A stretch of DNA of 32,000 bases from an uncultured bacterium (GCA_963704705.1 OY969931.1:120001-152000); one strand, 5' to 3'. Positions 3,550 through 30,707 are shown, counted from the stretch's first letter. Numbers and translations are program-made. Notes: generated by a model not told the origin, from the sequence alone.

Positions 3550-3552
3550 ATT

Positions 3553-4350: not shown

Positions 4351-4488
4351 CAGACACGATTTTATTAAAACTTTAGTTTGCTTATCAAAATGCGAAATCT
4401 AGCTTATCATATTTTAGGTTTTTTTTAAAAATATTTTAAAAAGTTATGTTATTCTTTACGCGTAAATTAATTTTTAACGCCCCTTGAA

Positions 4489-5019
4489 ATGGATCAAATA
4501 TTAGGAATTTTTATAAATTTCCTTGTGTTCATAAGTGACAGAACAGACTGTCCAGAAACACATTATGTTAGATATAATTATGAGTATGAGGTGCCGGAAG
4601 GGCTGAATGTAAGGAATGAATGGGGTGCCCGCGGTCCATTTACAGTTGATGATGGATTTGGTAATTCGATGTATATTGGATTTTTAAATTCAGATTCAAT
4701 AGAAGAAAACATTAATTGGTATAGAGAAGCTGAATATATGACAGTATTAGATGAATCACCAATTGGAGAAGATGCATATAAAGTAATTTTAGATAATCCA
4801 AGTCTATATGATCCTTATAATGAAATTATGTGGGTTAAAAATTCTAAAGGGTTTGTTGTAATGACAATGTTTAATCAGGGCGATCCTTCCAAGCATGCTG
4901 CTTTTGAGGAGAATGCCCTTCAATTGGCACGTTCAGTCGTGCAAGGAGATCCGTATGAGACACGGAAAAATCGCGATTGTGATCACCCTTCTCTTTGGGA
5001 TTTGCTTCCTAGGTGGTAA
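4489..5019 (+). CDS. Hypothetical protein whose last ~48 codons are encoded by compositionally foreign DNA (chimeric or truncated 3' end)
   Basis: 176-aa ORF with no recognised domain. Codon usage switches from AT3-rich to GC3-rich at about 4876 (cag ggc gat cct tcc aag...). The ORF then overlaps the M23 gene and its RBS. Confidence 0.4.
   Translation: MDQILGIFINFLVFISDRTDCPETHYVRYNYEYEVPEGLNVRNEWGARGPFTVDDGFGNSMYIGFLNSDSIEENINWYREAEYMTVLDESPIGEDAYKVILDNPSLYDPYNEIMWVKNSKGFVVMTMFNQGDPSKHAAFEENALQLARSVVQGDPYETRKNRDCDHPSLWDLLPRW
4943..4948 (+). promoter_or_regulatory. Canonical Shine-Dalgarno (AAGGAG) 6 nt upstream of the M23 peptidase ATG
   Basis: The sequence reads gcAAGGAGatccgtATG. Almost all other genes in the window lack such a motif; rpsP has a weaker AAAGGA. 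Confidence 0.6.
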
Positions 5020-6001: not shown

Positions 6002-6008
6002 TAACTGT

Positions 6009-6055
6009 CGTACTACCGAAATCCCGTACTAGTACTACGGATTTACGATAGTACG
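6009..6055. repeat. Imperfect ~47-bp inverted repeat built from four GTAC motifs, centred on the perfect palindrome GTACTAGTAC (6026-6035)
   Basis: The sequence is cGTACtaccgaaatcccGTACtaGTACtacggatttacgataGTACg. The outer arms cgtacta (6009-6015) and tagtacg (6049-6055) are exact complements. Confidence 0.6.
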
Positions 6056-6067
6056 CAATATAACCTT

Positions 6068-6112
6068 AAAGGCACGGTAAACAACCTGTTTGTTTTGCTG
6101 TGCCTTTTTTTA
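6068..6112 (+). terminator. Rho-independent terminator of the M23 gene
   Basis: The stem aaaggcac (6068-6075) pairs with gtgccttt (6100-6107). An inner pairing joins aaacaa and ttgttt. A T-run follows at 6105-6111. Confidence 0.75.
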
Positions 6113-6138
6113 ATTACGGATGTTGTTTATACGCACTC

Positions 6139-6209
6139 CATCCCCGGGGATGAACTGTAAATTCCGCATAAATAAACTCAATGCCAAATCTAATCTCCTC
6201 CCGGGAGGA
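6139..6209. repeat. Two perfect 14-bp GC-rich palindromes 57 bp apart: CATCCCCGGGGATG (6139-6152) and TCCTCCCGGGAGGA (6196-6209)
   Basis: Both are exact reverse-complement palindromes read from the sequence. They lie between the island terminator and the pcrA stop. Function is unknown. Confidence 0.6.
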
Positions 6210-6262
6210 AAATGTTTAGGCAAATGAATGGCGCATAAACAGCAATTTTTTAGCAATTTTCG

Positions 6263-8452
6263 CTATTCCTCTATCTTAACCAACGGCGCCACACTCAAAG
6301 CCAAACGCTTTATTCCAACAGCCGCATCTTTAAAGGCAATCGTGGCTACTTCACCTTGAACACTAACAACTACTCCTTCACCGAAAGTTGTGTGAATAAC
6401 CCGGTCGCCGTCACGCAAATCAATGCATGTTGAAACTTCTTCTTCCGGAACAGCCTTCATTGAGCCGCCAAGTCCAGCCATGAATCCGCCGCCAACAGAC
6501 ATATGAGTTCGCGGCTGTCCATAAATATAAACCAAAGCATCAGGTATATCTCCGATAAACTGCGAAGGCGCATTTGACTGAGCTTCTCCGTATAGCATTC
6601 TCTGGCGGGCATTAATCAAAAATAGTCTTTCCATTGCTCGGGTAATCGCCACATACATTAAGCGTCTTTCTTCTTCGAGCTCTTCAGGCTCGAGCATTGA
6701 ACGCGAATGCGGAAAAATTCCTTCTTCAAGTCCAATAATAAATACATTATCAAATTCAAGGCCTTTTGCGCTGTGAACAGTCATTAATACAACAGCGTTT
6801 TCTTTGTCATCCATTGAATCCACGTCGCTGATCAACGAAATTTCCTCTAAAAATACCGAAAGGCTAACCCCCGGATTTAGCAAATCATACTTTGAAGCAA
6901 CTGAAATTAATTCCGCGATGTTTTCGTAGCGTGCTTCGCCTTCAGGCGTGCCGTCCATAACAAACTCGCGGTAGCCCGATAATTTAAGTACGTGTTTGAT
7001 AACACCGCTTGCGGAAAATTCGTCATTTGCTTTTTTGAGCTGCTCAATTAATTTCACAAACTTTTTTATTGCTGCAATTTTGCCATCGTTAAGGTCGCTT
7101 ATTTCTTCGCATCTGCGCATTGCATCGTAGAATGATAACCCGTTTCGCCCCGCGTGTGTTTGCAAAGCTTCAATTGTTTTTGTGCCGATTTTGCGTGCCG
7201 GAGTGTTGATTATTCGGAGCAAGCTAACTGAGTCAGCAGAGTTTTGAACAACACGTAAGTAAGCAACCATGTCTTTAACTTCTTTTCGTTCGTAGAATCT
7301 TATCCCTCCAACGATTTTATATGGCAGGCCGTATCTTAAAAACACTTCTTCAATTGCGCGCGATTGTGCGTTTGTTCTGTATAAAACAACAAATTTATTG
7401 TATGGAGGAGCTTCATAATCTGCTGTGAGCTCACGTATTTTTTCAGCGATTAATTCGCCTTCGTGGCGTTCGTTTCTTGCTTCGATCACAGTGATTTTTT
7501 CTCCGCCTTCTTTTTCTGTCCACAATTTTTTGTCTTTTCGTTTTCTGTTTTTAACAATGATTTCGTGCGCAGCTTCAAGAATGATTGAAGTTGATCTGTA
7601 ATTTTGCTCCATCATTACAATTTTCGCATCAGGATAATCTTTTTCAAAATCCAGAATATTTCGGATATCAGCGCCGCGCCAACTGTAAATGCTTTGGTCG
7701 CTGTCACCGATTACACAAATATTTCTGTACTTTTCAGCAAGCAATTTAACAAGAGTATACTGCGCATGATTGGTATCCTGGTACTCATCCACGCAAATAA
7801 ATTTAAATTTTTCCTGATAATAATCGAGCACATCCGGATTTGCCTGAAAAAGCTCAATTGTTTTCATTAATAAATCATCAAAGTCGAGCGCATTATTTTT
7901 TCGTAAAGCATCCTGATAAGGCCCGTATAATTCGGCAACACGCTCGGTAAAATAATTGTGCGCCATTGATAAATATTTTTCAGGGTCAATAAGTTCGCTT
8001 TTCGCATTTGAAATATGATTCAAAATCGCTTTTGGATTTATCTGTTTTGAATCGATATGCCTTTCTTCCATCAGTCTTTTCATAAGGATTTGCTGGTCCG
8101 CAACATCGTAAATAGTAAAATTATTTTCATAATCGAGTAAGTGTAAATTTCGTCTTAAAATCCTTACGCAAGTCGAGTGAAAAGTGCCCACAGTTGGTTC
8201 ACTTGTTAAATTCGAACCTTCCAATAGCTTTTTTATTCTTTCTTTCATTTCATTGGCAGCCTTGTTCGTAAAAGTCACAGCCAGAATATTCCAGGGTGAA
8301 ATACCATGTTTTTTTATAAGATAAGCAACACGATGAGTCAGCGCGCGGGTCTTGCCGGAGCCGGCTCCCGCAATAATAATCAGCGGCCCAAGCTCGTGGG
8401 TAACCGCTTCTTTTTGCTTATCGTTCAAGTTTTTTAGGATTGCTTCCGGCAT
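6263..8452 (-). CDS. pcrA: ATP-dependent DNA helicase PcrA/UvrD (SF1)
   Basis: Walker A AGAGSGKTRALTHRVAYLI, DEYQDT motif, YRS, VMTVHSAKGLEF and a C-terminal Tudor-like GDRVIHTTFGEGVV. The protein is 729 aa. Confidence 0.92.
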   Translation of the reverse strand: MPEAILKNLNDKQKEAVTHELGPLIIIAGAGSGKTRALTHRVAYLIKKHGISPWNILAVTFTNKAANEMKERIKKLLEGSNLTSEPTVGTFHSTCVRILRRNLHLLDYENNFTIYDVADQQILMKRLMEERHIDSKQINPKAILNHISNAKSELIDPEKYLSMAHNYFTERVAELYGPYQDALRKNNALDFDDLLMKTIELFQANPDVLDYYQEKFKFICVDEYQDTNHAQYTLVKLLAEKYRNICVIGDSDQSIYSWRGADIRNILDFEKDYPDAKIVMMEQNYRSTSIILEAAHEIIVKNRKRKDKKLWTEKEGGEKITVIEARNERHEGELIAEKIRELTADYEAPPYNKFVVLYRTNAQSRAIEEVFLRYGLPYKIVGGIRFYERKEVKDMVAYLRVVQNSADSVSLLRIINTPARKIGTKTIEALQTHAGRNGLSFYDAMRRCEEISDLNDGKIAAIKKFVKLIEQLKKANDEFSASGVIKHVLKLSGYREFVMDGTPEGEARYENIAELISVASKYDLLNPGVSLSVFLEEISLISDVDSMDDKENAVVLMTVHSAKGLEFDNVFIIGLEEGIFPHSRSMLEPEELEEERRLMYVAITRAMERLFLINARQRMLYGEAQSNAPSQFIGDIPDALVYIYGQPRTHMSVGGGFMAGLGGSMKAVPEEEVSTCIDLRDGDRVIHTTFGEGVVVSVQGEVATIAFKDAAVGIKRLALSVAPLVKIEE

Positions 8453-8524
8453 AATCTGCGCACTTTAAAAATTACAGTCGGAAACTGATTATAACCTAAA
8501 AGTCCTATATAAAAAATATCAAGT

Positions 8525-9505
8525 TTACGGATGCACCCAAACAGGTGTACCAACATCAGTGAAGTCGTATGCGAATTCCGCGTCCTGAGGCAAAAGCCTG
8601 ATGCAACCGTGACTTCTTGGCTGACCAATGTGGCTTAATGCTTCACTCCAAAAATATCCGTTATCCCATGAAATACTTGGAAGTGCATGAATGCCATAGC
8701 CGCCAGCCCTGAAGTTCATCCATTTCGGCATTATGTAGTGAGGCCATGCAGCGCTTACACGAACTTCCTGTTTATAATAAATTTGAGTATTTCCATATGG
8801 CGTTGGGGTTGCCCATTTACCTGAACTAACAGGGAATTCACGTATTATAATGTCGCCTATTTTTAGGAACATTTTTTGCTCCGAAATGTCCACTTCAATT
8901 GACTTTGCTCCGTTAAAATCTTCATCGCTTACTTTTTTTGATTCATTAACATAATTCAAGAATTCTCTGTTTTCATTCATATATTCGCCAACATCAAAAT
9001 TTACAGCAAAAGGTTTTTCAATCCATTTCTGTCCTTCTACGACAATATCAAAAAATTCTCTGTAAACTCCTTTTTCATAAGGTACTTTAATATCAAATGT
9101 AAATGAACCTTTTTCTCCAGGTTTAACAACCGCCTGATCCAACTCGATTCTGCTTGGAGAGATCCAGTCAGTATAGAATACACTTTCTCTGTCTTTCCAT
9201 TTATCAGTTCCAAGTCTTGTTAAAGGCCTGAAATTACATCCGCTTTTATCCGAAAACATAGGAATTGTACCTGTGTTTTTAAAGTAAATTGTAACCTGTT
9301 CAATCGCGCCTGGGGTAAGTGTAAGCTTCTTTTTTGACCCAAGGTATTCAAAATCATAATTCAAATTAACATTTTCATCATATTGATAAGAGCAGATGTC
9401 AGGTTGCGCAGTTACATAATCCTGAGCCATAACCGTAAAATTTCCGAACACAAATATTGCAATAGCGGTTGTAAGTCCAAATCCAAATATTAAAAGTTTT
9501 TTCAT
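8525..9505 (-). CDS. Secreted L,D-transpeptidase (YkuD domain) with an N-terminal Ig-like/beta-sandwich domain
   Basis: Signal peptide MKKLLIFGFGLTTAIAIFVFGNFTVMA. The catalytic motif is GIHALPS...SHGCIRLLPQDA. Confidence 0.85.
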   Translation of the reverse strand: MKKLLIFGFGLTTAIAIFVFGNFTVMAQDYVTAQPDICSYQYDENVNLNYDFEYLGSKKKLTLTPGAIEQVTIYFKNTGTIPMFSDKSGCNFRPLTRLGTDKWKDRESVFYTDWISPSRIELDQAVVKPGEKGSFTFDIKVPYEKGVYREFFDIVVEGQKWIEKPFAVNFDVGEYMNENREFLNYVNESKKVSDEDFNGAKSIEVDISEQKMFLKIGDIIIREFPVSSGKWATPTPYGNTQIYYKQEVRVSAAWPHYIMPKWMNFRAGGYGIHALPSISWDNGYFWSEALSHIGQPRSHGCIRLLPQDAEFAYDFTDVGTPVWVHP

Positions 9506-11224: not shown

Positions 11225-12190
11225 TTATGCAACCAGACTTTTACCGCCAATACCGCCCATTTCACCACTGCCTGTAGTGCGCATATAAATTTTCGCAGCA
11301 GGGGAGTCCTCAGGATAAAGAGTTGCAGGATCCTGCATTACATCAACAACATAATATTTACCATCTTCCATCATCACAATGTTCCATGCGTGCCCGAAAC
11401 CTTTTTTATAAAAATGACCTCTAATCAAACGCGATCTTATGCCATTTACATCAGCAAGCAGCTTATATAAAATCGCTCTGTGTCGGCAAACCCCAAAAGA
11501 CAAATCACCTAATTTAACTTTTTGAGTATTTCGTTTTTTCATTATTTTTTCAATTTCATCCTCGGTATCTTCTTCGATTTTTGGGTTTCTTGAGCCTCCA
11601 AAATGATTAGACACAAACATAGCAAGAGCAGAGATTTTTTGTTTTTGTGTAGAGAAATTGCTTAACCATTTTTTTGATTCTTCGATGATTATATTTAATT
11701 TATGATCATTTTCAACATCAACAACGATCACTTCTCTGTTTGGAGATATTGGCTCATATTTCCCTTTTTTATTTCTTTCATATTTCATTTTTCTGCCACC
11801 ATCAACAAACCCATTTGGAATTCTGTCTGCAAAATCCAAAAACCCTTTTTTTAAATAATCCAGACTCACTTTTCTATCTTTAACTTCACTGTCATAACCT
11901 ATAACTTTATATAAAGATCTTTGTGTTAAAAATGTAATTTCACCGCTTTTAGGATCAACACTAATCTGGCGGATAGGACTTAGTTGGTCGCCCTCTTTAA
12001 ATGTCATAACTTCACCTACTCTAACTGTACTTAAAACCTTCCCTCTAATAAAATCGCCGATAGATGTAATGGTGTGCTTTTCGTTATCCAATTGCAGTTT
12101 TCGAACTGTTATTTCAGCTCCTTTGGGAATAAGAATCTGGGTGTAATCAGAATCGCTATGCGCAGGATCTAATAATATTTTTTCATGCAT
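11225..12190 (-). CDS. Hypothetical protein with a C-terminal transglutaminase-fold, EDR1/CTR1-N-terminal-like putative cysteine peptidase domain
   Basis: The segment FVSNHFGG...LGDLSFGVCRHRAILYKLLADVNGIRSRLIRGHFYKKGFGHAWNIVMMEDGKYYVVDVMQDPATLYPED follows the pattern I recall for plant EDR1/CTR1 N-terminal domains (HMGG...G.CRHRALLFKVLAD...R.V.G...N......Y.VDLM..PG.L.P.D). Candidate Cys, His and Asp residues are all present. Confidence 0.6.
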   Translation of the reverse strand: MHEKILLDPAHSDSDYTQILIPKGAEITVRKLQLDNEKHTITSIGDFIRGKVLSTVRVGEVMTFKEGDQLSPIRQISVDPKSGEITFLTQRSLYKVIGYDSEVKDRKVSLDYLKKGFLDFADRIPNGFVDGGRKMKYERNKKGKYEPISPNREVIVVDVENDHKLNIIIEESKKWLSNFSTQKQKISALAMFVSNHFGGSRNPKIEEDTEDEIEKIMKKRNTQKVKLGDLSFGVCRHRAILYKLLADVNGIRSRLIRGHFYKKGFGHAWNIVMMEDGKYYVVDVMQDPATLYPEDSPAAKIYMRTTGSGEMGGIGGKSLVA

Positions 12191-12301
12191 TTTTGTTTGT
12201 TTTTGTTGATTAAATTATACCATAAAATAAGTTTTTCGCCAATAGCGGTGCATTTCCCTCTCAACCCAGTCGTCCTGGTCGACCCATCCGAGCGAGAAAT
12301 A

Positions 12302-12336: not shown

Positions 12337-13251
12337 ATGGACAAACTTTCGCAACACATTCGCAAATTTCTTGAGCATGTTGAGGTTGGCAAAAACCAAT
12401 CCCAAAAAACCATCGAAAACTACAACCACTACCTCACGCGATTTCTTGAGTGGTATGGAGACAAACAACCACACCAAATAAAACTCGACGACATACACAA
12501 ATATCGGCTTTATCTAAACCGATATGCTGATGATCGCGGAAGAACTCTTGGCGTAAAAACGCAAAATTATCATATAATTGCACTTCGGGCTTTTCTCAAA
12601 TATCTCACAAAAAACGATATTGCCACGCTTCCGCCTGAAAAAATCGACCTTCAAAAAATTCCGGAAAGAACAGTAGAGTACCTGACCCGTGAAGAGCTCG
12701 AGCGGCTTTTTAAAGCAATTAATGCAAACACTATTAAGGGCAGGCGCGACCGCGCAATTGTTGAAACTCTCTATTCAACCGGGCTTCGTGTTAGCGAGTT
12801 GGTGAGCCTGAATCGTCAGCAGGTTGATCTTAAACGAAAAGAATTTATGGTCAGAGGAAAGGGCAGAAAGCCACGCATTGTTTTTCTGTCAGAACGTGCC
12901 GCAAAATTTATTAAGGATTATTTGGATGAACGCCGTGATAATTTTGATCCGCTTTTTATTAATCATGGCAGAAGCAGAAAAGGCGATGATATAACTTTGG
13001 GAGAGAAAAAGCGATTAACCACTGTTTCAGTGCAGAATGTAGTTAGAAATACAGCTTTAAAAGCAGGTATAATTAAAAAAGTTACACCGCATGTTCTCAG
13101 GCATTCATTTGCAACCGAGCTGCTTCTTAACGGCGCAGATATCCGTTCGGTTCAGGAAATGCTTGGTCATGCTTCAATCACGACTACGCAAATTTATACG
13201 CATGTAACTAACAAGCGTCTAAGAGAAATCCACGAGAAGTTTCATAGATAA
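12337..13251 (+). CDS. xerC: Tyrosine site-specific recombinase, XerC/XerD type
   Basis: N-terminal SAM-like domain plus the catalytic domain RDRAIVETLYSTGLRVSEL...HVLRHSFATELLLNGADIRSVQEMLGHASITTTQIYTHV (R..HxxR..H..Y). XerC and XerD cannot be told apart by eye. Confidence 0.88.
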   Translation: MDKLSQHIRKFLEHVEVGKNQSQKTIENYNHYLTRFLEWYGDKQPHQIKLDDIHKYRLYLNRYADDRGRTLGVKTQNYHIIALRAFLKYLTKNDIATLPPEKIDLQKIPERTVEYLTREELERLFKAINANTIKGRRDRAIVETLYSTGLRVSELVSLNRQQVDLKRKEFMVRGKGRKPRIVFLSERAAKFIKDYLDERRDNFDPLFINHGRSRKGDDITLGEKKRLTTVSVQNVVRNTALKAGIIKKVTPHVLRHSFATELLLNGADIRSVQEMLGHASITTTQIYTHVTNKRLREIHEKFHR

Positions 13252-15154: not shown

Positions 15155-15457
15155 ATGAATCCGACTGAAAATTTAACAAGACAACTTGAAAGTATTATTA
15201 CAACTCCAGATGTATTTGAAAAAACACTTTTAAAAAATCCAAAATTAATTGCAATAGTTGAAGACACGCTTGCCAAAGTTAAAAAAATTATGGCTGAAAG
15301 CGTTACAGTAACAGAAGATGGCCGCACAATGGAGCCGGTTGATTCTAACCAAAGCCCAATTCGATTTTTAGCAAAAAAAATCGAGGATGATCGCAGAAGA
15401 AGAGAGCACCATGCAGCCCAGGCCGGCCAGGTATTTGAAGGAGATGAAGATGCATAG
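15155..15457 (+). CDS. Hypothetical protein (100 aa, charged C-terminus)
   Basis: ORF only; no recognised motif. Confidence 0.45.
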   Translation: MNPTENLTRQLESIITTPDVFEKTLLKNPKLIAIVEDTLAKVKKIMAESVTVTEDGRTMEPVDSNQSPIRFLAKKIEDDRRRREHHAAQAGQVFEGDEDA

Positions 15458-15513: not shown

Positions 15514-16629
15514 ATGCACGAACTTAAAGAAAAACTTGAACTCGCAAAAACCGAGATTGCGAAAGCTTTAAAAACAGTTAACCCGCAGGAGCTTAAAAAT
15601 CGTGTGACTCAGCTTGAAAGTGTAATGTCTGAGCCTCGGTTTTGGGATGATAACGAGAAAGCGCAAAAAATAAGTCAGGAAGCATCCGAACTTCAAAAAA
15701 TCATTGAAGCCTGGCAGACAATTGAGCGTGATTGCGATGAGCTTTTGGGCCTTGTTGAGACTATTTCTCCTGAAGAAAATCCAAAAGAAGCAGAAGAATT
15801 GCATCAAATGGTGGATAAATTTGACGCCAAGTGGAAGGATTTGAGTATTAAATCTTTTTTGGGAGGTGAGTATGATAAAAATAATGCGATCCTTTCAATT
15901 CATTCCGGTACAGGTGGCAAAGATGCTATGGATTTTGCGGATATGCTAATGAGAATGTATTTACGATACGCTGAGAAACATGGGTTTGCAGTTGAGATTT
16001 TAGAAAAATCCGAAGGTGAAGAAGTTGGACTTAAATCCGCAACATTAATAATTAAAGGCTATCTGGCTTATGGATATCTGAAGTCGGAAAATGGGGTGCA
16101 TCGACTTGTGCGACTGTCGCCATTTAACACAAAACACACACGCGAAACATCTTTTGCACTTGTTGAAGTTTTGCCTGATCTTGACCTCGAAAAACCGCTT
16201 GAAATAAACGAAGATGACCTTCGCATAGACACATATAGAGCCAGTGGACACGGTGGACAATCCGTAAATACAACTGATTCAGCGGTGCGTATCACTCATA
16301 TTCCAACCGGACTTACCGGTCAGTGCCAAAATGAGCGAAGTCAGCTGCAAAATAAAGAGCAGGCAATGAAAATTCTTTCTGCGAAATTAACAAAATTAAT
16401 GCAGGAAGAAGCAGCCGAAACCCTTGATGATCTTAGGGGCGGCCGCAAAGAAATCAAGTGGGGAAGCCAAATTCGCAGCTACGTGCTTCATCCGTACACC
16501 ATGGTTAAAGACCACAGAACAAATTATGAAACCAGCAAAGTCGCAGAAGTACTTGACGGCGACATAGAAGGTTGTATAAGATCATATCTTGAAATGAATT
16601 TCGAATCACCTAAAGCAAACTTATCGTGA
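15514..16629 (+). CDS. prfB: Peptide chain release factor 2, encoded in a single uninterrupted frame
   Basis: The SPF tripeptide is present (RLSPFN), as is the GGQ motif (SGHGGQSVNTTDSAVRITHIPTG). The full N-terminus is in frame and there is no CUU UGA shift site. Confidence 0.95.
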   Translation: MHELKEKLELAKTEIAKALKTVNPQELKNRVTQLESVMSEPRFWDDNEKAQKISQEASELQKIIEAWQTIERDCDELLGLVETISPEENPKEAEELHQMVDKFDAKWKDLSIKSFLGGEYDKNNAILSIHSGTGGKDAMDFADMLMRMYLRYAEKHGFAVEILEKSEGEEVGLKSATLIIKGYLAYGYLKSENGVHRLVRLSPFNTKHTRETSFALVEVLPDLDLEKPLEINEDDLRIDTYRASGHGGQSVNTTDSAVRITHIPTGLTGQCQNERSQLQNKEQAMKILSAKLTKLMQEEAAETLDDLRGGRKEIKWGSQIRSYVLHPYTMVKDHRTNYETSKVAEVLDGDIEGCIRSYLEMNFESPKANLS

Positions 16630-17126
16630 GTATTCTCGAAATACAAACAGGCGCAGATAATCCGATTTTAAGGCAAAAGTCGACAAAGGTTGATAAAATC
16701 GACAAATCCGTAAAAAAACTTGCAAAAAATTTGCTTAAAACAATGGTAAAAGCCAATGGTCTTGGCATTGCCGCGCCCCAGGTTGGAGTAAACAAGCGCC
16801 TATTTATTACAACTTTTGATGAAGGCAGCGAACATGCCATGCATGTTTTAATGATAAATCCCGATATTTTGTGGAAAAGCCCTGAAACCGATATTGCAGA
16901 AGAAGGTTGTTTAAGTCTGCCTAAATTATATATGCCTGTGCCTCGCAGCACTGCGATTAGAGTAAAGTTTTTGGACCTTAAAGGCACTGAGCATGTTCTT
17001 GAACTTAAGGGCCTTAATGCGCGTGTTGTGCAGCACGAAAATGATCACCTTGACGGTATTTTGTTTATTGATAAAGCTGTTGAAAGTAAGTTACCTGACG
17101 ACGATTCTAGCCACGTAGCTTTTTAA
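16626..17126 (+). CDS. def: Peptide deformylase
   Basis: GIAAPQVG, EGCLSLP and QHENDHLDG motifs. The GTG start overlaps the prfB TGA (GTGA). Confidence 0.95.
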   Translation: MSILEIQTGADNPILRQKSTKVDKIDKSVKKLAKNLLKTMVKANGLGIAAPQVGVNKRLFITTFDEGSEHAMHVLMINPDILWKSPETDIAEEGCLSLPKLYMPVPRSTAIRVKFLDLKGTEHVLELKGLNARVVQHENDHLDGILFIDKAVESKLPDDDSSHVAF

Positions 17127-17961
17127 TTATTCGCATCACCCAGTACCAAAAGGGCTTGTAAATGCGTTCTTTGGCATGTTCATATTCTACAATTTCACCT
17201 CCGAATTTTAGTTTGAATTCTGTTACACCCTGCCAGGGATGATTTTTTGCGCCTTCAGGTGCTATCCCCAAAAAGTCATAAAATTTGCAGCCTTTTGCCT
17301 TTGCTTCCTGGATGGCATGCCACTGCAAGAGGTATGGTGCCATTACATTTCGATGTTTGTTTGATGAAGCTCCGTAATAATATGTGGCAGTGTCTTTATA
17401 GAAAGTTGCAATTATACCAGCGATTATTTCGCCTTCATATTGAGCATAATATAGTTTGGCACCATCAACCATATCAATCATTTTTTGATAAAAATCCGGC
17501 CCATGGCCCTTAAATTTATCGCGCTCCCAGGTTTGCTTTAGGATATTATAAAATTCTTTCGCGTCTTTGGATTCAATAATTTTCACATTATTCTTTTTTG
17601 CTATTTTTATATTGTATCTGCCTTTTTGTTTCATTTGAGCCAATATTTCCTGTTCGGATTTTGTGAGATCAATAACCAATGTTACTTCTGGCTGATAATG
17701 CGCATGCGCATCTTTGAGATTTTTATGGAATTTGTGATTATCTGATTTTAAATACGGATGCTCGAAACGAACATAAACAGCATTTTGCTGAATAGCTAAT
17801 TTATCCAAATCAACAATTGGTCCGCGATTAACATAAAGCCAGCATTTGCCTAAAGGAAGCGGCATTTTTTGAATAAATGTGCCTTCAATTTCAAAAAAAT
17901 CTTCGTTTTTTGCGCTTTTACGGAATGCCGCCCAGTTTTTAGTTTGTTCAATGTAATGCAT
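17107..17961 (-). CDS. FemAB-family peptidoglycan interpeptide-bridge aminoacyltransferase (lipid II:amino acid transferase-like)
   Basis: Starting from the ATG at 17961, the product reads MHYIEQTKNW...KGRYNIKIAKKNNVKI...YYYGASSNKHRNVMAPYLLQWHAIQEAKAKGCKFYDFLGI. The 196 codons upstream in the track ORF are a Ser/Phe-rich antisense artefact of the gene at 18056-18556. Confidence 0.85.
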   Translation of the reverse strand: MHYIEQTKNWAAFRKSAKNEDFFEIEGTFIQKMPLPLGKCWLYVNRGPIVDLDKLAIQQNAVYVRFEHPYLKSDNHKFHKNLKDAHAHYQPEVTLVIDLTKSEQEILAQMKQKGRYNIKIAKKNNVKIIESKDAKEFYNILKQTWERDKFKGHGPDFYQKMIDMVDGAKLYYAQYEGEIIAGIIATFYKDTATYYYGASSNKHRNVMAPYLLQWHAIQEAKAKGCKFYDFLGIAPEGAKNHPWQGVTEFKLKFGGEIVEYEHAKERIYKPFWYWVMRIIKKLRG

Positions 17962-17998
17962 AGCGCGCGTATTATAGCATAAATTTAAATCTAAAAGT

Positions 17999-18027
17999 TT
18001 GAAAAAAAGCTTAAAATGTAGTATAAT
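17999..18027 (+). promoter_or_regulatory. Near-consensus sigma70-type promoter for the 18056-22783 operon (TTGAAA-17 nt-TATAAT)
   Basis: -35 TTGAAA at 17999-18004, a 17-nt spacer, and -10 TATAAT at 18022-18027. It sits 28 nt upstream of the first ATG. Confidence 0.5.
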
Positions 18028-18055
18028 AACTAATGAAAAATAAACATAAATAAAA

Positions 18056-18556
18056 ATGCCGGACGAAACAAACTTACCGGGACTACCAAGCACAGTTGAC
18101 CTTGGCGCACCAACAGCAACAATTGAGGGCGATCCTTTGGCGTTTATGCAAAAGACAGCCCGCGATGCTATTGAATCAATTAGTAAAAATGCAATCGTTG
18201 ATGAACCGAATAAACTTAATTTTAAAAAGAAAGTACTTGAAGATTTGAAAGTGGGCATTGATGCAATGACAGAAATAGATAAAAAATTTGAAGCTAAAAA
18301 AGCCGAGGAAGAAACAAAAAAACCCGAAAGTGATGCAGTCGAAGAAGATCCTTTCTCTGATATTTTTGGAGAAGAAGGCGCAGCACCTGATGAATCAGTG
18401 CATGAAAAAACAAAGATAGCACAGGATTTTGTTTCAGCATTAAAAATGTACAAAGAACAATTTCTTAAAAAAATAAGAGTAAAAAAAGAATCAATGCAAA
18501 AGCAAAAAGATGAACAAGAACTACAAAATTTATTAGGTAAACTCGACACTATTTAA
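18056..18556 (+). CDS. Hypothetical acidic protein (166 aa), first gene of the orphan operon
   Basis: Coding-like sequence rich in E, D and K (…EAKKAEEETKKPESDAVEEDPFSDIFGEEGAAPDE…). There is no TM segment or signal peptide and no recognised family. Confidence 0.6.
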   Translation: MPDETNLPGLPSTVDLGAPTATIEGDPLAFMQKTARDAIESISKNAIVDEPNKLNFKKKVLEDLKVGIDAMTEIDKKFEAKKAEEETKKPESDAVEEDPFSDIFGEEGAAPDESVHEKTKIAQDFVSALKMYKEQFLKKIRVKKESMQKQKDEQELQNLLGKLDTI

Positions 18557-18582
18557 TTTTCATATAATTAACAAAAATAAAA

Positions 18583-19509
18583 ATGAAAAAACCAAATTTT
18601 AATCCAATGTTCTACAGTTTAAATCTTTATAAGATTTTTAAGCCTGGAGAAAAGCCGAATGAACCAACTTCAGTAAAAGCTGAAAGCATTGAAAAGAAAG
18701 AAATAACTAATGAAGACAGAACAAAAGTGCTTGATTACATTTCTACTCGAGCTTCAATAATTCAAGGTAAATCAGCTGAAGCACATGGAATATTTGAAAA
18801 AAATGCGAGTACGTTTCAATTTACTAAGGGTTTTGTAAAAGTAAAGAAAGAATTAGAGACCCTTAAAAGTGCTGCGGCTAGAAAAATATACTCAATGCGT
18901 GAAATAAAAGAACTTGAAGCTTATCAAATCGTACTTTTAAAGAATCTCGATAAAATTGAAAGAGACATCGATACTTTAAAAAATAAAATCGAATTACATA
19001 CTAAACTTAAAGAAAAAGCACAGGAAGAAATCAAAAGACATTTGGATAATTGGGAAAATGATGTTCCTCCGGGTATTAAAAAAGCTGCTTCACGAAGAGA
19101 AGTATTAATAGTTGTAACAGGTTATATCGGCAGATGGTATAAAGTTAATTCTGCTGCGATTGATAGAATTACTGATATGGCTGATAGCGGTATTATTCTT
19201 AATGGTTTTAATCAAAATCCACCTAAAGGGGAACTGTTTGAAGATTTAAAAACTCTTAATAAAGAAATTGAAAATGAAGTATATGCCAGATGGATTACCG
19301 GGCTTGAACATAAAGACGTATTAAGAACTGTTTTCAGTAAACTTGGGTGGGAAGATAAATTTATCAAAGAGATTAAGGATATAAAATTAAGAAAATTAGT
19401 TCAGGAATTTAATGAAAGCAGACAGATTGGATATAATCGTGGAGCCAGAAAAGATTATAAGGATATTGTAGATGCATTGGTTAATTATATCGGAAGAGCA
19501 CCAAGATAA
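18583..19509 (+). CDS. Hypothetical Lys-rich coiled-coil-like protein (308 aa), possibly the N-terminal part of a disrupted larger gene
   Basis: It shares the N-terminal motif (MK..N..N.P.F....L..F...GEKP) and the 17-nt leader with the 20501 gene. The frame stays open for 82 codons beyond its TAA. Confidence 0.6.
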   Translation: MKKPNFNPMFYSLNLYKIFKPGEKPNEPTSVKAESIEKKEITNEDRTKVLDYISTRASIIQGKSAEAHGIFEKNASTFQFTKGFVKVKKELETLKSAAARKIYSMREIKELEAYQIVLLKNLDKIERDIDTLKNKIELHTKLKEKAQEEIKRHLDNWENDVPPGIKKAASRREVLIVVTGYIGRWYKVNSAAIDRITDMADSGIILNGFNQNPPKGELFEDLKTLNKEIENEVYARWITGLEHKDVLRTVFSKLGWEDKFIKEIKDIKLRKLVQEFNESRQIGYNRGARKDYKDIVDALVNYIGRAPR

Positions 19510-19758
19510 ATTCTCAAGTTCCCGGAAGATTTACCTGATTTTCCTGATAAAAAGGATGCGATTAAAGCTGATTATATAACTTCAGGCATAAAAGTCGGTA
19601 AAATGGGTCCGTTTCCAAAGCCTGGAACTGAGACAAAAGAAAAAGATAAAGATAAAGAGAAAATAGCAGGAAAACCAAAAGCTACCGGATTAAAAGTAAG
19701 TACAAGTAATGGAAAAGTTCACTTGGAAATTGAAGGTGAAAATTTAACGAAATATTAA
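19510..19758 (+). pseudogene. ORF segment of 82 codons with no start codon of its own. It is in frame with and directly follows the TAA of the 18583 gene, and it bridges to the 19808 ORF through a +1 frame change.
   Basis: My translation is ILKFPEDLPDFPDKKDAIKADYITSGIKVGKMGPFPKPGTETKEKDKDKEKIAGKPKATGLKVSTSNGKVHLEIEGENLTKY*. The only internal ATG is at 19603. The frame of the 19808 ORF is open from 19748. Confidence 0.45.
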
Positions 19759-19807
19759 TCCTGTTAAAGTAAATTTAGAACTTAGTACCGTTGATCTTGC
19801 TGCAAAT

Positions 19808-20479
19808 TTGGCATCAGGCAAGGTTGATGTAAATACAGCTTTAGATTTGAAAGGTTTAAACGATAAAGTAACTCAGGGTATAAGAAATGCTACGCTACAC
19901 GGAATAAATTTAATTTCCATGGCTAACCCTGAATTAGCCAATAGTATTACTGATAAAATGCTAAATAATCAAAAAATAGAAGAATTACGAAAGGCTTTGT
20001 TTCCTAAAAAAACTGTAATTACTGTTGAAGGAACCGCAAGTATGGAAGGGGACCTTTCTGAAAATTTAAAAATTGCTGAAAATAGGGCTAAAGCTGGTGA
20101 AAAAGCGATTAAATCTAAAATGAAGCCTGGAGATTTCGATAAATATTTTACAGTTGTAAGAAAAACAAAAGTAGTTGGACCTGAAGGCCAAAATGCACAA
20201 GGTATTACCAATGCCGCAGAATTAAGAACAGCTCAAAGTAAAATGATCGATAAATTCAATAAGCAAGCCAAAAATGCAAAAGTTAAGAAAGAAATAAAAA
20301 CCTGGAAGGATATGCTTGCGATTCTTAAAAATCCACAAAATAAATTTGAAAAAGAGTTTGTTGAAAATAATTTTAATTACAACAGAAGGGTATCCTTGAC
20401 ATTCTTACCACCTAAAACAGGGGCACAGGAATTTTCTATTACTCCTGTTGATAAGTCGACATCGAGAACAGTATCATAA
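19808..20479 (+). CDS. Hypothetical protein with a divergent OmpA/MotB-like module. No convincing start codon, so it is probably the C-terminal part of the disrupted 18583 gene.
   Basis: TVITVEGTASMEGDLSENLKIAENRAKAGEKAI...NYNRRVSLTF (about 20012-20404) mimics the OmpA_C pattern (I.I.GHTD..G....N..LS..RA..V......NRRVEI). The track start is a TTG with no RBS. Confidence 0.55.
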   Translation: MASGKVDVNTALDLKGLNDKVTQGIRNATLHGINLISMANPELANSITDKMLNNQKIEELRKALFPKKTVITVEGTASMEGDLSENLKIAENRAKAGEKAIKSKMKPGDFDKYFTVVRKTKVVGPEGQNAQGITNAAELRTAQSKMIDKFNKQAKNAKVKKEIKTWKDMLAILKNPQNKFEKEFVENNFNYNRRVSLTFLPPKTGAQEFSITPVDKSTSRTVS

Positions 20480-20500
20480 GGTTAATTAACAAAAATAAAT

Positions 20501-22783
20501 ATGAAAAACTACAATCAACATAATGAACCGTTATTCATTCCTTCCAAGCTTATTTATTTTAGCAGTACAGGCGGAGAAAAGCCAAAAACAACCGAAGAAG
20601 CTCAAGATTCACCTAAATTTAAAGAAGCTTTTAATAAAACAAAAGAAAAACTCAATAAAGATTTTAAGGCTATTAAAGATACAAAGGAGTTCAAAGAGCT
20701 TAATAAAGTTGATTCGGATTTAGCTGATCATTATCTTGAGGTTTTTAAAGAAAGAGCATTCGGTCCTGATAGCGAAATTGCCGGAAATCTTAATACAGCT
20801 AAGCTTAATGAGTCCAACAAGCCATTAAACAAATTAATGACTGATTTGAATTCTATAAATATTAAATTTGCTAATTATTCTGCCAAATTTTTGAAAAAAA
20901 TAGAGCAGGTATCAACTGATATTAAAAAACAAAGAAAAGAAGCTTTAGATACATTTTTCAAAAAAACTTTGCCAAAAGATTTTGTTAAAGAAAAGGTTGA
21001 GAGTTACGCAGAGGGAACTGAAATTTCACCTGAAGTACGTAAACAGGCACTTGATTTTGGAGAAAAATTGGCTTTGGAAGGTGCGGATAAATTATCAAAA
21101 ACTTTAATTTATAAAGATTTTGCATTTAAAAAAGATCCGAATAATCCAAAGAAATTAATTGTTGATAATATGTCTGATGAGGTTAAACCACATGTTGATA
21201 AGGTTGATAAAGGGATTAAAACATTTATTAATAATGAAATAAAAAGAGCTAATGCAATGCCTGAAGAAGAAAAAAATACCTTAATAACTTATGCAAAGGT
21301 TAATGAATCCTCAAATGAAAACAAAGAGACCAGATCCGCTAATGAGAAATTCATCAAAGATCATATTGAGAAAAAAATAAAAGCAGGTGAAAAAGTAGTA
21401 ATTACACTTACGGGTAATTCAAGCGCCGAGGGTGATCCTAAAATAAATAAAGCTTTGGCTAAAAAAAGAGCTGAAGCAAAAAAAACAGCAATGGTTCAGG
21501 CTTTAAATAAGGTTTTGGGTAATAAATGGAAAGGTAAGGTTGATTTTGTATTAAAAACGCAGCAGGTTGAGCCAAAACTTGCAAAGGCTGACCTTCCAAG
21601 CGATATTCAAAAGAAATACGAAACAGACCCGAAATATAAAAAATTAAAATCGACTTTAGGTTCAAAATTTCAAGATGCAATGAAATATATTGATTCACAA
21701 AAAAAACCCGCAGATAAATTAAATGCAATTGTTAAACTTTTAGCAGGTAATGTTAATGTTAGAGCTGTACTTAGTGAGTACAACAAGTACATGAACATCA
21801 AAACAAACAGTAAGCTTGCTGATGCCGAAAAATGGCTTCAAACAAAGTCAAGATATCTAAAAAACAACCCTGATTTATTAGTTTATTTACATAAATATAT
21901 CGGCCGGGCCAGAAGCGCGGAAGTTAGAGTGCAAACAGCAAAAGAGGCTAATGAAAGCAAGGAGCAGTCTAAGTTTATTAGCGAATGGAGTAAGGATATT
22001 TTGAAGTATGATCCTACACTTGTTAAAAGATTAACACCGGCAGACAGAAAAGATGTAGTTACTTATCAGGTGCTTTCACAATTTGGTGATAGTGCAATTA
22101 AAGTAACCTTTGATGCTAATCTTCAAACAGCTATAGTAACAAATTTAGATAATAAATTTATAAAAAAGTTTAATAAAAATCAGAAAAATGATTTTAAATC
22201 AATGATTTATGGCTTTAGTGATAATAAGCTTGCCAGAATTGCAGATAAGAATTTAGTAAAAGGCAATAAAGAAAAAATAGCTGAAGCAACCAAAAATCTA
22301 AAGGACAGATTTCAAAGAGTTTATAATGCAAATAGAGCTACATTGAATAAATATAAATTAACTTTCAAAGCTAGAGGGAATTCTCTTGATGCCTTTGTAG
22401 ATGAAAAACATTATGGAACAATACTGTTGTCTTATAGCGGGGATATTAAAACAGACGCCGATGTGTTAGCTAAATTAAAAGGTTGGCAAAAAGAAAAACA
22501 AGATAGTTTAAAGAAATTTGCTGCAGATATGCCAAAATATGAATCAAATTTGAAAAAATTAGGTTTCAATTTTACAAAGCGTAATTTGGGAGAAAATAAA
22601 GGCTATGAATATACCTTAAAAGATGGGGATGGAAAGGTAAAAGGCTATCTTACTTACAGTATAAATGGATGGTTAAATATCAAAGATGCCAATAAGAATG
22701 ACACTTTCGAAACTATATTTAATACTGATAATACTGACGATGTTACTAAAAAATTTAAAGAGGCCAAAATTAATATTGCTTAA
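20501..22783 (+). CDS. Large hypothetical Lys-rich protein (760 aa) with a central divergent OmpA-like module. It is a paralogue of the 18583-20479 locus.
   Basis: VVITLTGNSSAEGDPKINKALAKKRAEAKKTAM...GRARSAEVRVQ (about 21395-21935). It shares the N-terminal motif and GGAGAAAAGCC with the 18583 gene. No signal peptide or TM segment is present. Confidence 0.75.
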   Translation: MKNYNQHNEPLFIPSKLIYFSSTGGEKPKTTEEAQDSPKFKEAFNKTKEKLNKDFKAIKDTKEFKELNKVDSDLADHYLEVFKERAFGPDSEIAGNLNTAKLNESNKPLNKLMTDLNSINIKFANYSAKFLKKIEQVSTDIKKQRKEALDTFFKKTLPKDFVKEKVESYAEGTEISPEVRKQALDFGEKLALEGADKLSKTLIYKDFAFKKDPNNPKKLIVDNMSDEVKPHVDKVDKGIKTFINNEIKRANAMPEEEKNTLITYAKVNESSNENKETRSANEKFIKDHIEKKIKAGEKVVITLTGNSSAEGDPKINKALAKKRAEAKKTAMVQALNKVLGNKWKGKVDFVLKTQQVEPKLAKADLPSDIQKKYETDPKYKKLKSTLGSKFQDAMKYIDSQKKPADKLNAIVKLLAGNVNVRAVLSEYNKYMNIKTNSKLADAEKWLQTKSRYLKNNPDLLVYLHKYIGRARSAEVRVQTAKEANESKEQSKFISEWSKDILKYDPTLVKRLTPADRKDVVTYQVLSQFGDSAIKVTFDANLQTAIVTNLDNKFIKKFNKNQKNDFKSMIYGFSDNKLARIADKNLVKGNKEKIAEATKNLKDRFQRVYNANRATLNKYKLTFKARGNSLDAFVDEKHYGTILLSYSGDIKTDADVLAKLKGWQKEKQDSLKKFAADMPKYESNLKKLGFNFTKRNLGENKGYEYTLKDGDGKVKGYLTYSINGWLNIKDANKNDTFETIFNTDNTDDVTKKFKEAKINIA

Positions 22784-22794
22784 TTAATAATTTT

Positions 22795-22826
22795 AAAAGG
22801 CCCCACTCAAGTGCGGCCTTTTGTTT
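22795..22826. terminator. Bidirectional intrinsic terminator between the convergent 760-aa gene and ftsZ
   Basis: The hairpin is aaaaggccccac (22795-22806), loop tcaa, then gtgcggcctttt (22811-22822), with one mismatch. An A-tract lies 5' and a T-tract 3', so it would work on both strands. Confidence 0.7.
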
Positions 22827-22863
22827 ATCTTTATTAGTGCGCTCTCGCGCTCTCGCGCCTTCT

Positions 22864-26515: not shown

Positions 26516-26950
26516 ATGCAAACAACATCTTCAGAAACTTTCGAGTCTCAAACAGAATCAAAAGATTCAAAGACTCCTATAATTTTCCTTGCATCTTCAA
26601 TTAAAAACGAAGTACTTAAAACACTTCAGCAGGGATTAAGTCATCTAAATGCCGAGATCATAACTGAGCAGGATTTTGAAGCTGGTCTTAAAAAAGCTCA
26701 TATGGCTGTTATTTTAGATGAAAATTTCGACCAGATTCGTAAAGCCTGGGAACACGGAGTGGTTACAATCACTTCAAAATTCAATGACAAAATTGAAGAT
26801 TATAATCCAAATTCAGAAAGCGGAAATTCTTTTGTTTTTGAAAATGCGAACGAATGGGAAGTTTTTGCTGCGATTGTACGCGCACTTGAAACGTATAAAT
26901 TTCCATATGACTGGAAATTCATTGTGCGGACATGCAAAGCAAGCGTTTAA
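26516..26950 (+). CDS. Hypothetical 144-aa protein resembling the C-terminal half of a GT-B (glycogen-synthase-like) glycosyltransferase
   Basis: AHMAVILDENFDQIRKAWEHGVVTITSKFNDKIEDYNPNSESGNSFVFENANEWEVFAAIVRALETYKFPYDWKFI parallels the GT-B C-terminal pattern (aD..l.PS..E......G.vPi......d.v.d......GF.F......l..ai.rAl..y......w). The conserved EX7E-type acidic motif is missing. Confidence 0.45.
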   Translation: MQTTSSETFESQTESKDSKTPIIFLASSIKNEVLKTLQQGLSHLNAEIITEQDFEAGLKKAHMAVILDENFDQIRKAWEHGVVTITSKFNDKIEDYNPNSESGNSFVFENANEWEVFAAIVRALETYKFPYDWKFIVRTCKASV

Positions 26951-27309
26951 TTCAAAGTACTTGTTCCGCTATTCGAAAGATCACCTCCAATATCGGTGAC
27001 GGTTTGAACTATTTTTCCTAAATCAATATATTTTATTACATCCAATCCGAATATTCTTCCAATTACCTGAATAATCACAATTGCCAAAAGAGTTACGATC
27101 AAACCAATAATTGCATATCGAATTGTACTTACGGCTTGTTTGATTTTTTCTTCTTGTCCTCCCGATAAAATAAATGAAATACCTCCTATGAAAATAAAGA
27201 AAACTGAAAGGGCGCCGGCAACAATAATGGCATATGCTAGTCCGATGTTTATAATCGTTACAATGTCATAACTTTGTGCAGCCTCAATAATAGAGGTTGA
27301 TTCGTGCAT
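26947..27309 (-). CDS. TrbC/VirB2-like (T4SS-pilin family) small membrane protein
   Basis: Two TM helices flank a Gly-rich loop: IVAGALSVFFIFIGGISFILSGGQEEKIKQAVSTIRYAIIGLIVTLLAIVII. This matches the pattern of the pilin family that is abundant in CPR genomes. Confidence 0.55.
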   Translation of the reverse strand: MHESTSIIEAAQSYDIVTIINIGLAYAIIVAGALSVFFIFIGGISFILSGGQEEKIKQAVSTIRYAIIGLIVTLLAIVIIQVIGRIFGLDVIKYIDLGKIVQTVTDIGGDLSNSGTSTLN

Positions 27310-30630: not shown

Positions 30631-30707
30631 GGGGTGGTAGTTCAGTTGGTTAGAACGCCTGCCTGTCACGCAGGAGGTCGCGAGTTCAAGTCTCGTCCAT
30701 CCCGCCA
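30631..30707 (+). tRNA. tRNA-Asp (anticodon GTC) with genomically encoded CCA
   Basis: The acceptor stem GGGGTGG pairs with CCATCCC (one G-T pair). D-arm TAGTTCAGTTGGTTAGAAC. Anticodon stem-loop CCTGCCTGTCACGCAGG. T-arm GCGAGTTCAAGTCTCGT. Discriminator G followed by CCA. Confidence 0.95.

Follow-up and report, generated by a model that had tools for sequence, protein, structure and literature searches.

We analysed a three-gene operon in a 32,000-nt stretch of DNA from an uncultured bacterium (GCA_963704705.1, OY969931.1:120001-152000), hereafter the window, from whose first letter coordinates are counted. The operon lies on the plus strand between femAB (minus strand) and the convergent ftsZ/ftsA genes, and encodes a small acidic protein followed by two large proteins, here called cargo, which are rich in lysine (13-17%) and very basic (isoelectric point, pI, 9.4-9.7). 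Its cargo represents a new variant, confined to one clade, of proteins with OmpA-like domains. The genes are unusually arranged, the OmpA-like fold coming with a conserved N-terminal tag, an A-rich leader and an acidic partner gene. Related loci and their proteins are designated below by L and P numbers, respectively. The three genes are:

18056-18556, plus strand: gene 1, acidic protein of 166 aa, pI 4.78
18583-20479, plus strand: gene 2, cargo of 'type A', disrupted
20501-22783, plus strand: gene 3, intact cargo protein of 760 aa, pI 9.6, 17% Lys

The OmpA-like module

The two cargo genes encode the following segments:

20009-20413, plus strand: OmpA-like module of gene 2, VITVEGTASMEGDLSENLKIAENRAKA ... 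helical insertion of ~60 aa ... NRRVSLTFLPP; Pfam OmpA 16.4 bits
20597-21256, plus strand: helical domain of gene 3 (residues 33-252) with one helix of 60 residues; predicted local distance difference test (pLDDT) 75-90 in the AlphaFold2 (AF2) model
21278-21937, plus strand: OmpA-like module of gene 3 (residues 260-479), G-N-S-S-A-E-G...N..LA..RA, final strand RSAEVRV
21569-21913, plus strand: helical Lys-rich insertion of gene 3, ~115 aa, between beta3 and beta4; AF2 helices at residues 369-470, pLDDT 75-87
21938-22780, plus strand: variable C-terminal region of gene 3, pLDDT <50

An earlier note, made from the sequence of the window alone, had pointed to OmpA-like segments in both large proteins, each split by a Lys-rich insertion. 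This is borne out by structure prediction and by Foldseek, which find the OmpA-like fold for gene 3 and for P0005, an intact relative of the gene 2 family with a module homologous to that of gene 2. In the AF2 model of gene 3 (pLDDT 70-90 over residues 31-488), the module is built from a strand (260-264), a helix (275-294), a strand (299-308), a helix (313-339), a strand (347-356), the insertion and a last strand (472-479). The P0005 model displays a strand (552-559), a helix (565-586), a strand (596-604), an insertion of ~55 aa and a strand (666-672). The topology is beta-alpha-beta-alpha-beta-(helical insertion)-beta in both models, with the insertion between beta3 and beta4 and with pLDDT of 70-90 over the module. 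The best 50 Foldseek matches of gene 3 in the PDB are all OmpA-like (YfiB, Pal, OprF, OmpA, RmpM, MotB, TagL, PorE), with probabilities up to 0.99 and weak E-values of 0.07-1, and the top PDB match of P0005 is the OmpA domain 4erh (probability 0.98).

At the sequence level the relationship is fainter. Pfam OmpA matches gene 2 with 16.4 bits and gene 3 with 16.7 bits (E ~0.01), and the relatives with 25.5 (P0005), 22.3 (an 866-aa cargo protein of L011) and 18 bits (P0016), all below the gathering score of 27.2; the NCBIfam models Pal, YiaD and PA1041 match the same 50 residues in both large proteins, also with E ~0.01. In a profile search with gene 3, the next matches after its own family were bona fide OmpA proteins (Pfam E 1e-18 and 1e-24), and those retrieved from Bacteroidota share an S-x-E-G variant of the motif, 'SSPEG' or 'ASPEG'. 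Sequence-profile searches of the PDB with four alignments returned nothing significant save tetratricopeptide repeats (TPR), due to the C-termini of P0003 and P0004; the E-values by hmmsearch were otherwise 0.05-0.8 at best.

The spacing of the module motif equals that of the canonical G-x-T-D-x-x-G-x4-N-x2-L-S-x2-R-A, and S308, G311, N316 and R323 (gene 3 numbering) are invariant in 10 sequences. Every sequence thus has Ser (S308) in place of the canonical Asp and, with hardly an exception, Glu two positions on, whereas the Arg is kept (R323); gene 2 shows the same pattern. In Acinetobacter baumannii OmpA (PDB 3TD5), the conserved ligand-binding pair consists of Asp271 and Arg286. On the models, the fold is OmpA-like; formal membership of the family and ligand binding are putative.

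The two cargo proteins had also been proposed to be paralogues. BLASTP and a first hhalign comparison aligned only a motif of 26-34 aa between them, whereas hhalign with profiles of 10 and 12 sequences aligned the two modules over 139 columns (probability 75.9%, E = 2.3e-5). Paralogy therefore stands for the module, as it does for the tag and the leader described below, and does not extend to the long N-terminal helical regions, which fail to align by BLASTP or hhalign. Judging from these alignments, genes 2 and 3 share module, tag and leader, and the remainder is either unrelated or too diverged to tell.

Tag, leader and acidic partner

Three leaders and two tags were located in the operon:

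18038-18054, plus strand: A-rich leader of gene 1, 3 mismatches to the cargo 17-mer, ending 1 nt before the ATG
18565-18581, plus strand: cargo leader TAATTAACAAAAATAAA of gene 2, exact repeat
18583-18657, plus strand: tag of gene 2, MKKPNFNPMFYSLNLYKIFKPGEKP, from the tag alignment and hidden Markov model (HMM)
20483-20499, plus strand: cargo leader of gene 3, exact repeat
20501-20584, plus strand: tag of gene 3, MKNYNQHNEPLFIPSKLIYFSSTGGEKP, predicted disordered, pLDDT <50 for residues 1-31

The N-terminal peptide shared by the two large genes was rightly recognised in the earlier note, including the 11-nt stretch GGAGAAAAGCC, which occurs at 18646-18656 and 20573-20583 and encodes G-E-K-P in both. 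It belongs to a tag of ~25 aa built around an aromatic core, either [FLM]-F-Y-S-x-x-[IVL]-[YF] or F-x-P-S-K-L-[IV]-[YF]; behind the core, most tags continue with a hinge of one or two Gly and with E/G-K/R-P. Examples on the gene directly after gene 1 are MKKPNFNPMFYS..., MLQPKFNPFFYGKFVF, MKKQNFTFFYSLPVF and MKKPLFNLFYSLPVF, while proteins of the gene 3 type start with ...LFIPSKLIYF or ...FALCAPSKLVFF; the gene 3 tag itself is conserved in P0002-4, P0016 and P0018. Both the tag and the A-rich leader are conserved in ~20 related loci, the motif being present at every related locus examined, as the earlier note had asked to be checked, and in the metagenomic loci on the first cargo gene wherever that gene could be read. 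Among 462 open reading frames (ORFs) in ~150 kb, the tag HMM matched 16 operon cargo ORFs and no others, a specificity that is partly circular, several of the matched ORFs having been used to build the model. The tags are predicted to be disordered in both AF2 models. About half of the 26 tags have a GG pair no more than ~5 residues behind the core; gene 2 of the window has none. Two cargo proteins have no tag: the 866-aa protein of L011, and P0015 (gene 3 of L007), which begins exactly after the GG(G) hinge seen in its relatives.

The leader TAATTAACAAAAATAAA occurs exactly twice in the window, each time 1 nt before the ATG of a large gene, just as described earlier; at up to 3 mismatches, 6 sites are found against 1.85 expected, the gene 1 leader among them. 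Its conservation was likewise sought in related genomes and was found at every related locus examined: the consensus (T/A)TAAC(A/C)AAAA(T/C)AAA(A/T)ATG precedes nearly all cargo genes, and is kept even where gene 1 is only 45-50% identical. No use of Shine-Dalgarno sequences was seen in the genome, and the leader may be an A-rich translation-initiation element. An RNA element was considered for the leader and rejected, since folding gave no structure and no Rfam family matched. A similar leader, TAATCAACAAAAACAAA at 12196-12212, has 2 mismatches to the cargo 17-mer and directly follows a TATAAT box; the gene behind it, which encodes a transglutaminase/EDR1-peptidase-like protein (11225-12190, minus strand), is the sole gene of the window outside the operon with such a leader.

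Gene 1 is always directly upstream of the cargo genes in the related loci examined. Its 19 homologues (160-169 aa, 42-100% identity), to which metagenomes add 10 more loci, keep the invariant short motifs LPxLPxTVDL, EGDPLEFMQ, EEDPFADIFG and ILGKLN. The protein has no match in Pfam, NCBIfam, PHROGs, PADLOC or the PDB and no signal peptide by hydropathy. Some relatives contain an extra small acidic gene, g0 (~157-164 aa, pI ~5.3, no family), between femAB and gene 1 (L004:6809-7303; L012:8505-8999; L017:410-904; L018:676-1149), which is absent from the window.

Signals and transmembrane (TM) segments were assessed by Kyte-Doolittle hydropathy, and the absence of a Sec signal or TM helix noted earlier was found in all members: none has a Sec signal, a lipobox or a TM anchor, the best 19-residue windows scoring 0.6-1.6 and staying below 1.6 throughout. 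The best N-terminal 15-residue windows of genes 1, 2 and 3 score 0.2-0.8, against N-terminal maxima of 2.3-2.9 for envelope proteins encoded in the same window (L,D-transpeptidase, S41, M23, pilin and a lipoprotein-like ORF). Ordinary signals are thus in use in this organism, and the operon products are without them. A TM anchor in the middle gene was considered and dropped: a central glycine-zipper is borderline in two relatives (1.57-1.59), is not conserved and is absent from the window type.

Disruption, rarity and variation of the locus

Gene 2 carries two lesions:

19507-19509, plus strand: in-frame TAA nonsense codon; homology goes on in the same frame past the stop
19744-19750, plus strand: frameshift site, one extra base near 19747 in TTAACGA

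By tblastn, gene 2 is colinear with an intact 603-aa protein at L011:12137-13948. Residues 1-372 of that protein match 18583-19746 at 29% identity if the stop is read through. The match resumes one frame further on, residues 370-592 pairing with 19748-20440 at 39% identity; the break between 19746 and 19748, across which the query residues are contiguous, places the frameshift. The earlier view of 18583-20479 as one gene in need of repair is thus retained, with the correction that exactly two lesions, a nonsense codon and a 1-nt insertion, break it. The source record apparently annotates two separate proteins here, of 308 and 223 aa. With only two lesions and long open stretches in DNA of 37% G+C, the gene would be either a very recent pseudogene or the product of assembly errors; the data point to recent inactivation, unless the lesions are such errors. 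Compared with L001, gene 2 had first seemed to be short of ~175 central residues, an idea that was dropped once the intact colinear L011 relative was found. Gene 2 shares only ~25-29% identity with the 'type B' middle genes found at L001, L004 and L007. The type B proteins have a Gly-rich central segment that is poorly modelled, and P0005 (L001:7868-9979) has a beta-rich domain at residues 378-475 (pLDDT ~80-85); neither has a counterpart in the type A gene of the window or a fold match.

The family is rare. Among 5.8 billion non-redundant proteins in a word-indexed collection, gene 3 had only 4 matches at E <= 1e-3, and an exhaustive HMMER search of 1.84 billion proteins with a profile of its residues 1-480 yielded 9 representatives. 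All family matches with a source name are from Patescibacteria ('Patescibacteria group bacterium'), and the sole match among GTDB representative genomes is a related Patescibacteria single-cell genome. Neither gene 1 nor gene 3 was found on viral contigs of IMG/VR. Scans of the operon products and their relatives against Pfam, NCBIfam, PHROGs and PADLOC gave, in the way of known families, only the sub-threshold OmpA matches, in agreement with the earlier statement that no known family could be assigned, and no phage or defence family; the one weak PHROGs match, of unknown function (E = 0.005), covers the OmpA motif only. The literature search found no paper on the family, only context on Patescibacteria secretion.

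Between close relatives the cargo genes can vary far more than the flanking genes do, as the amino acid identities to two related loci illustrate:

FtsA: 99.5% vs L001; L007 not compared
FtsZ: 97.8% vs L001; 96% vs L007
RF2 (release factor 2): 95% vs L001; L007 not compared
Def: 91% vs L001; 92% vs L007
FemAB: 88% vs L001; 91.5% vs L007
Gene 1: 81% vs L001; 91% vs L007
Gene 3: 78% vs L001; 30% vs L007
Gene 2: 26% vs L001; 28% vs L007

Synonymous divergence (dS) is similar along the whole locus (0.3-1.0). The ratio of nonsynonymous to synonymous divergence (dN/dS) is 0.025-0.10 for the neighbours, 0.145 for gene 1 and 0.21 for gene 3 (both vs L001), and 0.17 for the gene 2 types among themselves. 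The operon therefore consists of real genes, which purifying selection maintains and which change at a higher rate than the genes around them. Identities of 25-30% result from exchange for deeply divergent cassettes and not from vertical decay. The number of cargo genes also varies, from 1 to at least 5 overall: L022 has one, the window, L001, L011 and L020 have two, L006 has four, and L012 has at least 4, one of which encodes no fewer than 1592 aa, besides an ORF of 114 aa without a tag. The C-termini of gene 3-type proteins are exchanged as well, with TPR in P0003/P0004, another, unassigned domain in P0015, P0016 and P0018, and an unassigned domain of its own in the window.

In related loci the gene order is always femAB, the acidic 166-aa gene, cargo genes and ftsZ-ftsA. 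The transcription unit in the window is bounded by these features:

17107-17961, minus strand: femAB, Pfam FemAB match with E = 4.5e-35
17999-18027, plus strand: operon promoter TTGAAA-17-TATAAT, in the 94-bp divergent region between the femAB start and gene 1
22794-22830, both strands: bidirectional intrinsic terminator, common to the operon and the convergent ftsZ, from fold energies and z-scores

The promoter proposed in the earlier note is the best promoter-like site of the region, with 11 of 12 consensus positions. Promoter-like sites are in total as many as expected by chance, so that its weight rests on position and on conservation, an equivalent box lying 25-30 nt 5' of the first operon gene in L001, L007, L004, L012 and L015. 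The bidirectional terminator, also predicted there, is confirmed by stable folding of its hairpin (22794-22823) on both strands, with -15.1 kcal/mol on the plus strand (z = -4.1) and -17.0 kcal/mol on the minus strand (z = -4.7); the hairpin is flanked by an A-run upstream and a T-run downstream, and went undetected by a simple terminator scan because it has one internal mismatch. With this promoter and this terminator, the transcription unit is well delimited.

Upstream, a 480-aa ORF with a GTG start (17107-18549, minus strand) runs antisense across gene 1 and is the femAB frame extended upstream; the actual FemAB-like gene encodes 284 aa and, like its counterparts in L001 and L007, begins at an ATG (17961 in the window). 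The left part of the window (2329-9505) is rich in wall-remodelling genes with normal signal peptides, among them an S41 C-terminal protease with PDZ, a YkuD L,D-transpeptidase, and an M23 peptidase fused to a Golvesin_C domain (4895-6001, overlapping an ORF at 4489-5019), and also encodes YmdB, a UvrD/PcrA helicase and a BrkB-like membrane protein. A XerC-like recombinase of 304 aa is encoded at 12337-13251, ~5 kb from the operon; its syntenic counterpart at L004:1-1187, a XerC/D-like recombinase of 727 aa, carries an intein with a LAGLIDADG endonuclease according to Pfam hits. The release-factor gene (15514-16629) is a single ORF with no programmed frameshift, and the SPF motif read by eye in its translation is a mark of the RF2 type; UGA thus acts as a stop codon here, and translation table 11 is the right choice. 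Just 5' of it, a 100-aa ORF without family (15155-15457) keeps its position in L001, L004 and L011 (83-103 aa). Downstream of the operon by 4 kb, a gene for a VirB2-like pilin of a type IV secretion system (T4SS) lies at 26947-27309 on the minus strand (Pfam T4SS_pilin, E = 1.9e-8) and keeps its place in L001, L004 and L011; it is the sole T4SS gene of the window. One tRNA gene, at 30631-30704, is the sole Rfam match in the window.

Possible roles and known counterparts

On the reading that we tentatively favour, the cargo proteins would be variable envelope or surface proteins associated with the cell wall, and the tag and the acidic partner would serve to deliver or dock them. The operon is a lineage-specific, fast-evolving cassette of one Patescibacteria clade, exchanged by recombination. 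Its OmpA-like module may hold the cargo non-covalently on peptidoglycan, leaving the helical and C-terminal parts as the exposed, selected and hence variable portion. Because the cargo has no Sec signal, the tag is assigned the role of an element that could be recognised by a dedicated Sec-independent route or a docking partner, and the acidic gene 1 product may be that partner, serving the highly basic cargo as a chaperone or an adaptor. Cassette replacement, tandem expansion, high pI and a conserved handle (tag plus gene 1) combined with a variable payload fit wall-associated, externally selected proteins whose tag a dedicated partner or route would recognise, and we know of no characterised OmpA-like fold that acts anywhere but outside the membrane. 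Several points weigh against this reading. Taken at face value, the missing signals speak for a location in the cytoplasm, as far as hydropathy of the sequences can tell; the tag matches no known secretion signal, and no export machinery is linked to the operon at the loci examined. The two untagged cargo genes of L007 and L011 do not conform to it, and no chaperone family was found for gene 1 in Pfam, NCBIfam and PDB sequence searches. Moreover, since the diaminopimelate-binding Asp is Ser in every member, it is uncertain that the module binds peptidoglycan. The AF2 alignments had little depth (4 and 7 sequences), and the Foldseek E-values are weak (0.05-1) because whole chains including the insertion served as queries.

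A cytoplasmic location is the basis of a second explanation, which we hold to be somewhat unlikely and which comes closest to the envelope or division module suggested by the earlier note. The cargo would form membrane-associated scaffolds, with the aromatic, basic tag acting, like the targeting sequences of SepF, FtsA or MinD, as a peptide for in-plane membrane targeting or for docking to a partner: basic helical proteins held at the membrane's inner face, close to the divisome and to the machinery for wall precursors (FemAB, flippase, FtsA/FtsZ), with a module that binds the stem peptide of lipid-linked precursors or has been repurposed, and with gene 1 as regulator or adaptor. The lack of a Sec signal or TM helix in any cargo member and in gene 1 agrees with it, as does the femAB / operon / ftsZ-ftsA order, invariant even at 44-52% gene 1 identity. 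F, Y, L and I abound in the tag cores, which Lys precedes; on the Wimley-White interfacial scale, peptides of this kind should prefer the membrane interface. However, we know of no cytoplasmic ligand of OmpA-like domains, the operon and ftsZ are not co-transcribed, being convergent with a terminator between them, and synteny seen only within a narrow clade is weak functional evidence. Cassette replacement and copy-number change at 96-99.5% FtsZ/FtsA identity would also be atypical for partners of a conserved machine, so that a core envelope or division module is, despite the synteny with ftsZ/ftsA, not supported, and a core role in division is unlikely.

The tag and the 166-aa protein might define an unrecognised Sec-independent route of targeting or export in Patescibacteria, one that places OmpA-like wall-binding proteins of large size and hypervariable sequence on the surface of the epibiont or on its host; we judge this unlikely, and so too its variant in which the tag serves as a donor strand that polymerises the cargo through the OmpA-like sheets into a wall-bound lattice. 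It is improbable that the cargo consists of effectors secreted at the epibiont's host, which gene 1 would hand by their tag to a contact-dependent apparatus such as a relaxase-less T4SS, the module binding host peptidoglycan and an arms race driving variability. The signals known from T4SS substrates are C-terminal, the loci examined have neither VirB4 nor VirD4 genes next to the operon, housekeeping genes separate the syntenic pilin gene from the operon, and the family scans gave no toxin or enzyme domain and no immunity-like gene. In its favour are the hypervariability, the tandem expansion and the distance of only 4 kb to that same pilin gene. A relaxase-less T4SS of monoderm type, with unknown substrates, is widespread in Patescibacteria (PMC12102498); this context, which also bears on the favoured reading, makes a Sec-independent route conceivable without tying it to this operon.

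Another route would be a double-glycine-type leader, cut at the Gly hinge by a peptidase-containing ABC (ATP-binding cassette) exporter. The tag's length of ~20-30 aa, its missing hydrophobic core, the GG pair after about half of the cores and the start of tag-less P0015 would suit it, yet the other tags, that of gene 2 included, have no GG, and the hydrophobic pattern of the tag does not fit the consensus LSxxELxxIxGG. With no match to an NCBIfam leader family, no C39/ABC transporter gene at the loci examined, and known substrates that are small peptides where the cargo measures 600-1600 aa, we regard this explanation as very improbable. Least probable of all, and largely refuted, is a mobile element, phage remnant or anti-phage defence island in a variable hotspot. 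Gene content does vary between conserved flanks and a XerC-like integrase lies nearby, but the latter is a conserved, syntenic XerC/D of housekeeping type, no repeats or att-like boundaries were found, operon dS equals that of the neighbours, and PHROGs and PADLOC gave no significant match. A phage or mobile origin was rejected on the absence of relatives in IMG/VR and on the BFVD matches, which are OmpA-like domains only.

Patescibacteria (Candidate Phyla Radiation, CPR) make up a large share of bacterial diversity and are, as far as known, epibionts with tiny genomes; little is known of the way in which their surface is built and varied. The locus offers a sharply defined case, with a wall-binding fold that has no classical export signal, a conserved tag, a partner, a leader and cassette replacement at strain level. 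If the tag is a targeting or export signal, the cargo would be a new class of substrate, possibly of a new route; if the proteins are cytoplasmic, theirs would be, to our knowledge, the first OmpA-like domain acting on the inner side of the membrane. Under both readings the locus makes a useful marker for diversification among strains of this clade.

The proposed wall-associated cargo can be set beside several known systems. The tag resembles the SepF N-terminus and the FtsA and MinD C-termini as a short aromatic or amphipathic, basic-flanked terminal peptide encoded near ftsZ/ftsA; it differs in having prolines, in not being predicted helical (pLDDT <50) and in forming a strict motif on hypervariable proteins. 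With double-glycine leaders it has in common a short Sec-independent N-terminus, a Gly or Gly-Gly boundary in many tags and a tag-less variant starting there, whereas the GG is not universal, the consensus is absent, the cargo is at least 10 times larger and no transporter gene is nearby. Pairs of a substrate and a small acidic chaperone are known from type III secretion (T3SS effector-chaperone) and type VII secretion (T7SS LXG-Lap). As in these, a disordered, non-hydrophobic N-terminal segment stands on otherwise unrelated cargo, a small acidic protein is encoded immediately upstream, and a conserved handle is joined to a variable payload. In contrast, no such components were seen here (no T3SS gene in the 32-kb window), gene 1 has no detectable chaperone family, and the tag is a conserved sequence motif, which T3SS signals are not.

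Variable surface proteins bound non-covalently to the wall are known in monoderms, such as the pneumococcal choline-binding proteins PspA and PspC and the S-layer proteins with S-layer homology (SLH) domains. These have Sec signals, other wall-binding modules and neither partner gene nor tag, but they too combine a wall-binding module (here predicted) with elongated helical variable regions, mosaic exchange and high pI. The closest known domain is PF00691 (OmpA_C/Pal/MotB), especially its Bacteroidota 'S-P-E-G' subtype (e.g. P0019, DUF3575 plus OmpA). The cargo departs from it in scoring 16-25 bits, under the gathering score of 27.2, in its helical insertion of 55-115 aa between beta3 and beta4, in having no signal peptide, lipobox or TM anchor, and in placing the module inside helical, Lys-rich proteins of 600-1600 aa. 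It shares with PF00691 the beta-alpha-beta-alpha-beta-beta fold, the motif spacing G-x-x-[D/S]-x-x-G-x4-N-x2-L-[SA]-x2-R-A and a closing (N)RRV-like strand, and the change of Asp to Ser plus Glu also occurs in bona fide members of that family.

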